4,834 nucleotides of DNA from a virus. Its lineage: Duplodnaviria > Heunggongvirae > Uroviricota > Caudoviricetes. Positions 1 through 3,815 of this stretch are shown piece after piece (positions within the stretch are counted from its first letter, which is position 1; each line of letters starts with the position of its first letter). The DNA lies in the IMG/VR virus record IMGVR_UViG_2630968342_000003, one strand, 5' to 3'. The position numbers were made by a program, and so were the translations under genes. A model generated the notes under the pieces. That model was not told where the DNA came from. It did no database searches and was given only the letters and a program-made list of their open reading frames with translations.

Positions 1-331
1 TCTCGATGGAAGTTATTGAGTGATCTCCTTTCATGAAAATACGCAAGCGGTTACGAACGGAATCTTCATGCCAGCGGGTATCGCTGTAACGGGTCAGCTG
101 GCGATACTTGTCTCCTGCATAGCTGAATGACGTCACCAGCCCCAACGTGTCCGTAAACTCATAACGGTATTTCACGTTAATCCCGTTCAGATCATCACTG
201 CCGGGAACGTTCGTCGAGGCATGAAGATACCCCGCGCTCAGCGTGGACTGATGTTCAGACGCCCATGCAGGCGCACCGGATACGGCCAGACAAATGGCTG
301 CGGACAAAATTGCTGCACAAACTTTACGCAT
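1..331 (-). CDS. lom: Lom-family outer membrane protein (Ail/Lom/PagC/OmpX 8-strand beta-barrel family); ATG at 331..329, ORF runs off the window at position 1. Frame departs from recalled lambda Lom in the last ~45 nt.
   Basis: Minus-strand translation from the ATG at 331..329 gives MRKVCAAILSAAICLAVSGAPAWASEHQSTLSAGYLHASTNVPGSDDLNGINVKYRYEFTDTLGLVTSFSYAGDKYRQLTRYSDTRWHEDSVRNR..., a near match to lambda Lom as I recall it, including the signal peptide ending AWA/SE. GAGG Shine-Dalgarno (plus strand CCTC 337..340) lies 5 nt upstream of the ATG. Position immediately downstream of J matches lambda gene order. After ...SVRNR the frame reads LRIFMKGDHSITSIE, which I do not recognise as Lom. Confidence 0.8.
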   Translation of the reverse strand, partial: MRKVCAAILSAAICLAVSGAPAWASEHQSTLSAGYLHASTNVPGSDDLNGINVKYRYEFTDTLGLVTSFSYAGDKYRQLTRYSDTRWHEDSVRNRLRIFMKGDHSITSIE

Positions 332-351
332 AATTACCTCTCGCTTTTCTG

Positions 352-380
352 CAATAAAAAAGGCGTCATTCCTGACGCCA
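352..380 (-). terminator. Rho-independent terminator downstream of J (tJ-like): 7-bp GC-rich stem, 4-nt loop, then a T-run on the minus strand
   Basis: Plus strand 356..379 reads AAAAAA GGCGTCA TTCC TGACGCC. On the minus strand this is GGCGTCA-GGAA-TGACGCC followed by TTTTTTATTGC, starting about 22 nt after the J stop codon. Seen directly in the sequence. Confidence 0.6.
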
Positions 381-401
381 TTTATTGGGGTTATAAATAT
401 T

Positions 402-3400
402 TCAACGAATACTGATGCCGGAAGCAGCTTTTTTGGTCACAATCACCGTACAGTCGGTGATATTGCCTGCCCCCTGATTGCCTTTCTGGAAAATCTTAAA
501 CTCCAGAGTGACGCTACCACCACCACTAGGCATATCAATAACTGCACTGTAACTACCGGGAATGGCCCCTTTAGTTTCTCTGGATGCGATTAATACGCCG
601 TTTTTGCGAACTTCAAAACCATAACCCGTGTATCGCGTGCCTCCTGGGTTATTTCCGCTCCCCGGATCGTCATACGCTATACCGTTAAAAATAATGGGCG
701 GAATAATAATCTGGCGGTCAAAGTTATGATCATCGCTGATGGTGACTGTAACCGTACCGTTTGGTGTTTCCGTGTTACCCCACGTACCGACTTTTTTCGG
801 GAAGGCTTTTGATACAGCTTTAACGAAATCCCCTCTGACCTGGGTCGCCTCCAGCATGCCCTTAATCGTACAGTTCTGGTTAATCGTGACATTGTTGAGC
901 GTTCCTGAGTTCGCATTCACACTGCCACTGATATCCGCATTTTTAGCGGTCAGCTTTCCGTCTGATGTCAGGGAAAATACCGGAGGACTGCCACCGCTGG
1001 TAATGGTGGGGGCCGTCAGGCGCTTCAGGAACACGTCGTTCATGAATATCTGGTTGCCCTGCGCCACAAACATCGGCGTTTCATTCCCGTTTGCCGGGTC
1101 AATAAACGCGATACGGTTAGCGGCAACCAGAAACTGGCTCAGCTTGCCTTCCTCCGTGTCCTCCATGCTGAGGCCAATACCCGCGACATAATGTTTGCCG
1201 TCTTTGGTCTGCTCAATTTTGACGCCCCACATGGCATTCCATTTATCGTTAGCGTCCTTCCACTCTTTCGAAAACTCATCCAGTCTGCTGGCGTTATCCT
1301 CCGTCAGATCGACTTTTTCCAGCAGCTCCTTGCCGAGATGAGATTCGGTTATCTTGCCTTTGAAAAAATCCAGGTAACCTTCCGCATCATCGCTCGCCCG
1401 ACCGACGGCTTCCACGAATGCCGATTTGCCAACGGTGTTCACACTGCGGATATAAAAGTAATAATCATGGCCCGGTTTGATATTGATACTGGCGGCTATC
1501 CAGTACAGCGCCGTACCAAGATAGCGGGCTGTGGTTTCAACCTGCCTGATATCGGTAATCCGCTTTTCCGAGAACCAGAACTCAAACTGTACCGTCGGGT
1601 CATAAACGGCAAGATGCGGCGTGGCGGTTATCTGAAAATAGCCCGGCGTCAGCTCAATCCTCGACGGTGCTGCCGGTGCGGCAATCCGGAACGATACCGA
1701 CGCCGGATCGCCCTGCTGCCCCCACGCATTTACCGCCCGGACTGTCAGCCTGTAGTTCCCCAGCGCCAGTTGCGTGAAGCGGTATGTGGTTTCCGTCGTC
1801 CGGGCCGTGCTGACCAGCCGCTCACTGCCGTCATCCGCTGTTACGGTCAGACGGAGCAGGAAGCTCACGCCCTTCACCACCTTCGGCGTGTCCCAGCGCG
1901 CCAGCACCTGATATTCCCCGCTGTCTGCGGTGACTTCGGCGGTCAGGTGCTGCACCGCTGGCGGCGTGACACCATTCACCGTGCCGCTCTGGTCGCCGTC
2001 AAAGTGCGCCCCGTTATCCACGATGGCTTCTTTTTCCGGTACATGCTGCACGGCAGTGATGGCATACGTGCCGTCATCGTTCTCACGGATACTCACACAG
2101 CGGAACAGGCGCTGACGCAACGTCGGCAACTTCAGCCCCCACACACTGTATTCTGCAACGCCGTCAGGAACCCGGTTCACTTTCACCTTAAGTCCGTCGG
2201 TGACGGACTGAACCTCCACGCTGACCGGATTACCACTTCCGTCAACCAGGCTTATCAGCGTGGTACCGGAGGATGGCAGCGTGATTTCACGGTCGAGCGT
2301 CAGCGTCCGGGTCTGGCTGGTCACCGCCAGCACGCGACCACCGGTGCTGATACCGGCATAGTCATCATCGCAGATTTCAATGACATCGCCCGGTACATGG
2401 CGAAGCCCTTCAGCACCCACGCTGAAATCCACGGTCTGCGTTTCCAGCAGTTCTGTTTTAATCAGCCACAGCCCGGCGCGATGTGCCTGCCCCCGGCTGG
2501 TACAGCCAAAGGCATCCATCTTCGTGACATTACGACCGTAACGGGCAATGGCCTGCGTATCTTCAACAAGCTCTGTCGCCGTCTCCCAGCCGTTGTTCGG
2601 GTCAATCCAGTTCACCTCAACGGCATTATGGCGGTCCTTCAGGGCGCTGAAACTGTAGCGGAACGGCGCGCCATCATCCGGCATCACCACATTACTGCGG
2701 TTATAGGTCCACACCTTATCCGACGGCCGGTCCTGCACGAACGTCAGCGTCTGCCCGTTCCATACCGGCATACAGCGCATCGCCGAGCAGAAATCACTGA
2801 GCACATCCCACGCCTTACGCTGTGTGGTCAGCCAGGCATTACAGGTGATGCGCGGCTCCGTACCGCCAAAGCCGTCCGGCACCGACTGGTCGCAATTCTG
2901 GCCGATGACATACAGCGCCCATTTATCCACATCTGCCGCACCAAGACGTTTCCCCATGCCGTAGCGCGGGTGGGTCAGCATATCCCACAGACACCAGGCC
3001 ATGTTGTTGCTGTATGCCGGTTTTAACGTTCCGTCCCAGATACCGCTGTATTGCCGCGTCTGCGGGTTATAATTCGACGGCACCTGCAGAATGCGCCCGC
3101 GAAGATGATAATTACGGCTCACCTGCTGGCTGCCGAACTGCTCCGAATCCACCTGCACGCCGACCAGTGCCGTGTTCGGGTAGCACTGTTTCACATCGAT
3201 GATTTCGGTGTATGACGACCAGAGCGTTTTGTTCTGCAGCTGGTCTGTGGTGCTGTCCGGCGTCATCCTGCGCATCCGGATATTAAACGGGCGCGGCGGC
3301 AGGTTATCCACCACCACCGAGGCCAGATACTGCGAGGTGGTTTTGCCTTTAATGGTGATGTCTTTTTCCGTCACCCAGCCACCATTACGCTGTATCTGAA

Positions 3401-3815
3401 CCAGCAGGCGGACTTCCGACGGATTCCGGTCACCCTTTGAGGTGGTTTCCACCAGTGCCTGCACACCGAAGGTAAAGCGCAGACGGTCGATGTTTGCCGA
3501 CGTGATGGTCCGGGTAATCGGCGTGTCGTACTTCACTTCCGTACCCAGCACCGTCTCGGAGCCGGAGGATTCAAATCCCTCCGGCGGTGTCTGCTCCTGC
3601 TCACCTGCCCGGAAAACCACCGTGACACCGGAGATATTGGTATTCCCCTCACTGTCCAGCACCGGCGTACTGTTCAGCAGCACACTTTTTAATCCGTCCA
3701 CCGGACCTTCAACCGGCCCTTCACTGATGGCGTCTATCACGCTCAGCATCTGGGATGATTTCAGGTTGTCCTTCGCTTCGCGCGGGGTATGCCCCTTACT
3801 GCTGCCTTTACCCAT
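402..3815 (-). CDS. J: Tail tip / central tail fibre host-specificity protein J, 1137 aa; lambda-like N-terminal and central regions, diverged C-terminal receptor-binding region
   Basis: Single 1137-aa ORF. The N-terminus [20 protein letters not shown]... and the bulk of the protein are near-identical to lambda gpJ (1132 aa) as recalled. GGAG (plus strand CTCC 3824..3827) lies 8 nt upstream of the ATG at 3815..3813. Stop is TGA at 404..402. The last ~165 residues align with lambda only in patches ([15 protein letters not shown] vs IVDMPAGRGNVILTF; [14 protein letters not shown] vs VMVIKKQALGISVV). Confidence 0.95.

Follow-up and report, generated by a model that had tools for sequence, protein, structure and literature searches.

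The stretch of DNA analysed here, an IMG/VR virus record of 4,834 nucleotides (IMGVR_UViG_2630968342_000003; the window, at its full length), ends inside a gene whose product changes its character shortly before the edge. On the minus strand, positions 331 to 1 are translated as MRKVCAAIL...HEDSVRNR, a typical beginning of the lambdoid outer-membrane protein Lom, and then as LRIFMKGDHSITSIE. What is the origin of these last residues, and what has become of the lom gene?

The surroundings of the gene are ordinary. The minus strand of the window corresponds to the late region of a lambdoid prophage, with the genes K (partial), I, J and then lom, and the intact gpJ places the window in this region. 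The lom frame starts at nt 331 and leaves the window at nt 1. The hairpin that precedes lom is GC-rich (GGCGTCAGGAATGACGCC) and is followed on the minus strand by TTTTTTATT, which makes it a terminator-like site; the records of phages mEp460 and 434 list a 'terminator' feature under the aligned lom-J stretch. Promoter scanning of window positions 1-450 revealed no sigma-70-type promoter, and neither an outward nor an inward promoter is claimed here. Coordinates of the individual features are collected in Table 1.

Table 1. Features of the window discussed in the text (".", strand not applicable).
Feature	Position	Strand	Evidence and remarks
Chimeric open frame lom'-IS, 110 codons visible	1..331	-	Full frame of 112 codons in matching genomes
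Left terminal inverted repeat of ISEc12 (IS21 family), outermost 45 nt, istA-proximal end	1..45	-	45/45 identity
Target-site duplication copy, 5 bp	46..50	.	AGCGG on plus strand, CCGCT in lom sense; the pentamer also flanks the other end
lom 5' fragment, nt 1-286 of 600	46..331	-	Codons 1-95 + first base of codon 96; translation, Pfam, BLAST
Hairpin, then T-run, between J stop codon and lom start	362..379	-	Consensus scan; context only, outside the insertion
gpJ, tail tip host-specificity protein, 1137 aa, intact	402..3815	-	ORF list; RefSeq gpJ, WP_187002376.1

Position of the break in lom

The switch from Lom to other residues is abrupt and falls between nt 45 and 46 of the window (minus strand). 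The Lom translation begins with MRKVCAAILSAAICLAVSGAPAWASEHQ and runs to ...TRWHEDSVRNR, directly before LRIFMKGDHSITSIE. An initial annotation of the sequence had counted about 96 recognisable Lom codons, which is close; the native part amounts to 95 residues and one further base. In a search against Pfam, residues 1-102 were matched to positions 1-102 of the 199 positions of the Ail_Lom profile (PF06316; E = 1.2e-54), and it is therefore only the N-terminal half of the family that is present, a stretch comprising the Lom-homologous signal peptide and the first strands of the barrel.

Comparison of window positions 1-420 with other genomes by BLAST located the break at the same place. At least 80% of this query was spanned by 165 of the 179 matching records in the phage collection, and among the phage matches listed, all except H24 start to align at nt 46. 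In over 4000 E. coli genomes the alignment likewise begins at nt 46 and not earlier. Between nt 46 and 420, identity to most of the listed phage records and to these E. coli genomes is 93-99.7%, and the lom portion, from nt 46 onward, shares 93-99% of its DNA sequence with lom of many lambdoid phages. Alignments that continue through nt 1 were obtained with three E. coli genomes only. The change of the Lom frame to non-Lom residues near the edge, suspected in the initial annotation, is thus confirmed by translation, by the half-profile Pfam match and by the BLAST break.

The terminus of ISEc12 at the window edge

Read on the minus strand, nt 45 to 1 (TGCGTATTTTCATGAAAGGAGATCACTCAATAACTTCCATCGAGA) are identical in 45 of 45 positions to nt 1-45 of ISEc12, a 2581-bp element of the IS21 family carrying the genes istA and istB. 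The reference copy, an intact one from E. coli CRE1540 (L006 301-345), is located in mnmH and has its own 5-bp duplication, GCGTT. Since the identity to a known IS terminus extends over all 45 positions, the break is not a product of chance. By this match, the window edge is placed 45 nt into the left terminal inverted repeat of ISEc12, which is why the Lom frame appears to turn into unrelated sequence. The 45 nucleotides contain the first repeat unit of the terminus (core GGAGATC) and a part of the second one (core CGAGATC), which is split by the window edge.

An AAGGAG-like motif, noticed already in the initial annotation, is indeed present in this segment (minus strand GAAAGGAGATC; about nt 21-31 on the plus strand). 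Its role as a Shine-Dalgarno site was considered and rejected: the motif forms the core of L1, one of the GGAGATC units repeated in the IS ends, it is found also in the right end (GTGAAGGAGATCGG), and it lies approximately 175 nt upstream of the istA ATG.

The lom::ISEc12 locus in matching genomes

The three E. coli genomes that align with the window without interruption are complete genomes of strains G1/2, G6/7 and G8, components of the probiotic Symbioflor 2 (PMC4358396). The whole window is identical to each of them in 4833 of 4834 nucleotides, and the sole mismatch, common to all three, is nt 2320 inside gpJ, where the window has G and the genomes have T. The window accordingly derives from a very close relative or from a further assembly of this lineage, not from those exact records.

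In these genomes the structure of the locus can be followed beyond the window edge. RefSeq lists, in the direction of lom, an Ail/Lom pseudogene without C-terminus, istA, istB and an Ail/Lom pseudogene without N-terminus, and the two genes in the middle are labelled 'IS21-like element ISEc12 family'. The pentamer AGCGG flanks ISEc12 directly on both sides in all three strains. The element runs TGCGTATT...AATACGCA, with imperfect inverted ends and 5'-TG...CA-3' termini. One pair of inverted-repeat arms is 53 nt long with 72% complementarity; the terminal pair is 16 nt long with 81%. In the left end GAGATC cores occur at nt 19 and 42, in the right end at nt 18 and 41, with the same spacing of 23 nt in both.

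When ISEc12 and one copy of AGCGG are deleted in silico, a 600-nt lom reading frame is obtained. It encodes 199 amino acids ending ...GVGYKF, and past the insertion point it continues with ...VRNRWFSVMAGPSVRVNEWF..., by which the continuation WFSVMAGPS, given for lambda Lom in the initial annotation, is reproduced. A full-length Ail/Lom protein of about 200 residues, with C-terminal strands and a terminal aromatic residue, is not encoded by the frame as found; it appears solely after this removal of the IS (199 aa, ...GYKF). The restored gene is identical in 594 of 600 positions to the uninterrupted lom of strain WP7-S17-ESBL-04. With respect to lambda Lom and the Ail/Lom family (PF06316), residues 1-95 are thus Lom, and the restored gene, of 199 codons, shows 99% DNA identity to an intact prophage lom, whereas the present gene is split and about half of the barrel is fused to 17 IS-encoded residues.

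The duplication and the restorable gene are together the signature of simple transposition, and ISEc12 has almost certainly transposed into lom of a lambdoid prophage, after nt 286 of the gene. From the 4833/4834 identity to three genomes with the whole element, we infer that a complete ISEc12 is present in the window's own genome as well. Among the possibilities raised initially, insertion was therefore the right one, the element being ISEc12 with its inverted repeats and 5-bp duplication; terminal inverted repeats and a target-site duplication had been named there as marks to look for, and both are found in the matching genomes. A truncated lom remnant had also been proposed, and truncation of the Lom frame follows from the insertion.

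The course of such an event can be outlined from the biology of IS21 (PMC10122671, PMC11208146). IstA, a DDE transposase, would bring together both multi-repeat ends of ISEc12 in a synapse, and IstB, an AAA+ ATPase, would present the target DNA. Staggered cuts made 5 bp apart would then give rise to the target-site duplication.

On the far side of lom in strain G1/2 (L001 1-5600, beyond the window), two truncated pseudogenes of side-tail-fibre genes are located, and after them tfaQ, pinQ, ydfK and ynfT, genes of the Qin type. This suggests that the lambdoid late region of G1/2 adjoins a Qin-like cryptic prophage or has recombined with one.

Alternative explanations

Four other explanations of the junction can be weighed against simple insertion. 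The first is that the window's own genome contains a solo ISEc12 end, a rearranged or deleted remnant of the element, or a deletion of the lom 3' part mediated by the IS. The window shows 45 nt of ISEc12 and has one mismatch to the three reference genomes, and the copy in G1/2 is 136 nt shorter than canonical ISEc12, all of which could be taken in favour of such a rearrangement. It is nevertheless improbable: identity in 4833 of 4834 positions points to the same lineage, the three assemblies show a complete simple insertion with its duplication, and the deletions in the G1/2 copy show the scatter that is typical of assembly error.

Mosaic recombination, by which a moron or accessory cassette of unrelated origin would have taken the place of the 3' half of lom, is frequent in the late regions of lambdoid phages, which are mosaic, and the lom/stf region does vary between records, with identities ranging from below 80% to 99%. 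The sequence after the break, however, begins with TG and corresponds exactly to the terminus of a transposable element, and directly beyond ISEc12 the 5-bp direct duplication and the missing half of lom follow in register. Clean excision in silico restores lom, and neither homologous nor illegitimate exchange of cassettes would give such features, which leaves this explanation with a very low probability. The swap of a moron cassette, put forward in the initial annotation, is contradicted by the intact 3' half of lom, retained at a distance of 2.6 kb in the genomes with this junction.

An assembly chimera, in which the 45 nucleotides were mis-joined to lom at a repeat, is just as hard to credit. 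IS repeats are frequent at the ends of contigs, and the window does terminate inside one, but three complete genomes that were assembled separately contain the identical junction, together with the reciprocal junction and its matching 5-bp duplication, which a chimera would not create. A divergent full-length Ail/Lom allele with a C-terminal half unlike lambda Lom, the reading that the initial annotation had set against its own, has an open frame reaching the window edge in its favour and nothing else, and its probability is close to nil, as the stop codon follows two codons past the edge in matching genomes and ends the product at 112 aa, the match to PF06316 covers no more than the first 102 of 199 profile positions, and an inverted repeat of the IS is the source of the 15 odd residues.

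The chimeric frame and its product

With simple insertion of ISEc12 as the preferred explanation, the product of the interrupted gene can be specified. The full chimeric frame consists of 95 Lom residues, 17 IS-encoded residues (LRIFMKGDHSITSIEIG) and a stop codon (ORF L001 7993..8331), and the same chimeric translation of 112 aa is obtained from G6/7. In the matching genomes, the last base of the stop codon is found 8 nt past the window edge. The signal peptide would be retained in the 112-aa product, together with about one half of the beta-barrel. As only about half of the strands are left, the eight-stranded barrel should not form, and in the lineage of the window Lom has probably been lost. 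Lom is dispensable for growth of lambda, which would explain why an insertion in its gene is tolerated.

ISEc12 as a member of the IS21 family

Tests of family membership were carried out on istA and istB of the junction-sharing genomes and of canonical copies, the window itself holding 45 nt of ISEc12. Canonical IstA scores 310.5 bits against the NCBIfam model of IS21 family transposases (NF033546, cut-off 160) and matches also the Pfam domains rve and Mu-transpos_C_2. For canonical IstB, the scores are 270 bits with NF038214 (cut-off 200) and 227.5 bits with PF01695. Elements of the IS21 type are characterized by two-gene istA-istB organisation, 5-bp duplications and ends built of the repeat units L1/L2 and R1/R2 (PMC10122671). 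All these traits are found in ISEc12. Between its ends there are two consecutive genes, istA, coding for the DDE transposase, and then istB, coding for the AAA+ helper ATPase. The ends have TG...CA termini and multiple terminal units, whose 23-nt spacing agrees with the L1/L2 and R1/R2 organisation of IS21-family ends (PMC10122671). Duplications of 5 bp accompany three separate ISEc12 insertions: AGCGG here, AAAGT in lom of ST131 strains and GCGTT in mnmH.

The copy in lom shares its TG...CA termini, repeat units and 5-bp duplication with canonical ISEc12, and no structural difference between the two was found. It differs from the canonical element in frameshifting single-base indels in istA and istB, present in the three assemblies, and the annotation of G1/2, G6/7 and G8 marks both genes as frameshifted. 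The copies are 2445 bp (L001 5601-8045), 2578 bp (L003 2468-5045) and 2579 bp long (L004 2467-5045), compared to 2581 bp of the canonical one. Those of G6/7 and G8 are like canonical ISEc12, with 0-2 substitutions and 2-3 indel positions relative to the 2581-bp copy. The G1/2 copy lacks 136 nt in scattered small deletions, nearly all in istA, which are suggestive of noise in the assembly. All three Symbioflor copies have in common the loss of one nucleotide at IS nt 2071, in istB, which may represent a real inactivating mutation. The lom-borne copy may thus be inactive, or else the assemblies may be imperfect.

Recurrence of ISEc12 in lambdoid late regions

Of 5426 complete E. coli genomes, 1875 contain sequences matching ISEc12, at 5521 places in total. 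The junction seen in the window was found in three of the 5426 genomes, and a second insertion of ISEc12 into lom in 342 of them, including the ST131 strains EC958 and JJ1886. These counts cover two junctions; the similarity search joins pieces only over short distances, and insertions at other sites would escape it. The second element was inserted after nt 380 of lom, 94 nt from the first site, with the duplication AAAGT (EC958, L007 1965-4545). It is 2581 bp long and both istA and istB are intact.

A partial phage record, vB_EcoS-783R2 (L002 1-64), terminates in this second lom::ISEc12, and the insertion is thus the reason why the record stops inside lom. The same record matches the window in two pieces within positions 1-419, which prompted the idea that nt 1-45 are a displaced piece of lom, separated from the rest by an internal deletion of the gene. 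The idea was abandoned, since the record shows the same IS end 94 nt further into lom.

The insertions in ST131 strains and vB_EcoS-783R2 resemble the present one in their orientation (istA-istB co-directional with lom), in the 5-bp duplication and in that lom can be restored. The ST131 insertion differs from it in position (after nt 380 versus 286), in the duplicated pentamer (AAAGT versus AGCGG) and in the alleles of lom and J. It is an event independent of the insertion in the window. Full ISEc12, 100% identical to the canonical element, is carried also by four complete phage genomes, PhiR12_1, PhiR12_2, PhiR12_2_star and PhiR12_4. In this type of insertion (PhiR12_1, L008 3501-6081) the element lies downstream of J in a gene for a tail fibre or for tail-fibre assembly, in the opposite orientation. 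Lambdoid phages carrying the IS appear to remain viable.

Because of two independent insertions in lom, 94 nt apart and in the same orientation, and of the tail-fibre insertion in inducible phages, it can be asked whether ISEc12 has a preference for lom, or for accessory genes in the late region of lambdoid prophages, as its target, either through target choice directed by IstB or through selection for loss of Lom in gut-resident lysogens. We regard such a preference as rather unlikely. High copy number of the element and dispensability of the genes may simply be sufficient to produce the observed recurrence.

Conclusions

The element and the gene are both known, and the annotation of lom pseudogene fragments flanking ISEc12 is already contained in RefSeq. 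What looks like an unusual C-terminus of Lom marks a pseudogene junction; it is neither a novel form of Lom nor a moron swap, and it matters mainly for correct annotation. Lom, an outer-membrane protein expressed in lysogens, has probably been lost in a lineage whose matches among complete genomes are the probiotic Symbioflor 2 strains. The junction, with its occurrence in 3 of 5426 complete genomes, could act as a lineage marker. Repeated insertion of ISEc12 into lom, with the second event in 342 genomes, provides a small piece of evidence for accessory phage genes as sinks of insertion sequences.
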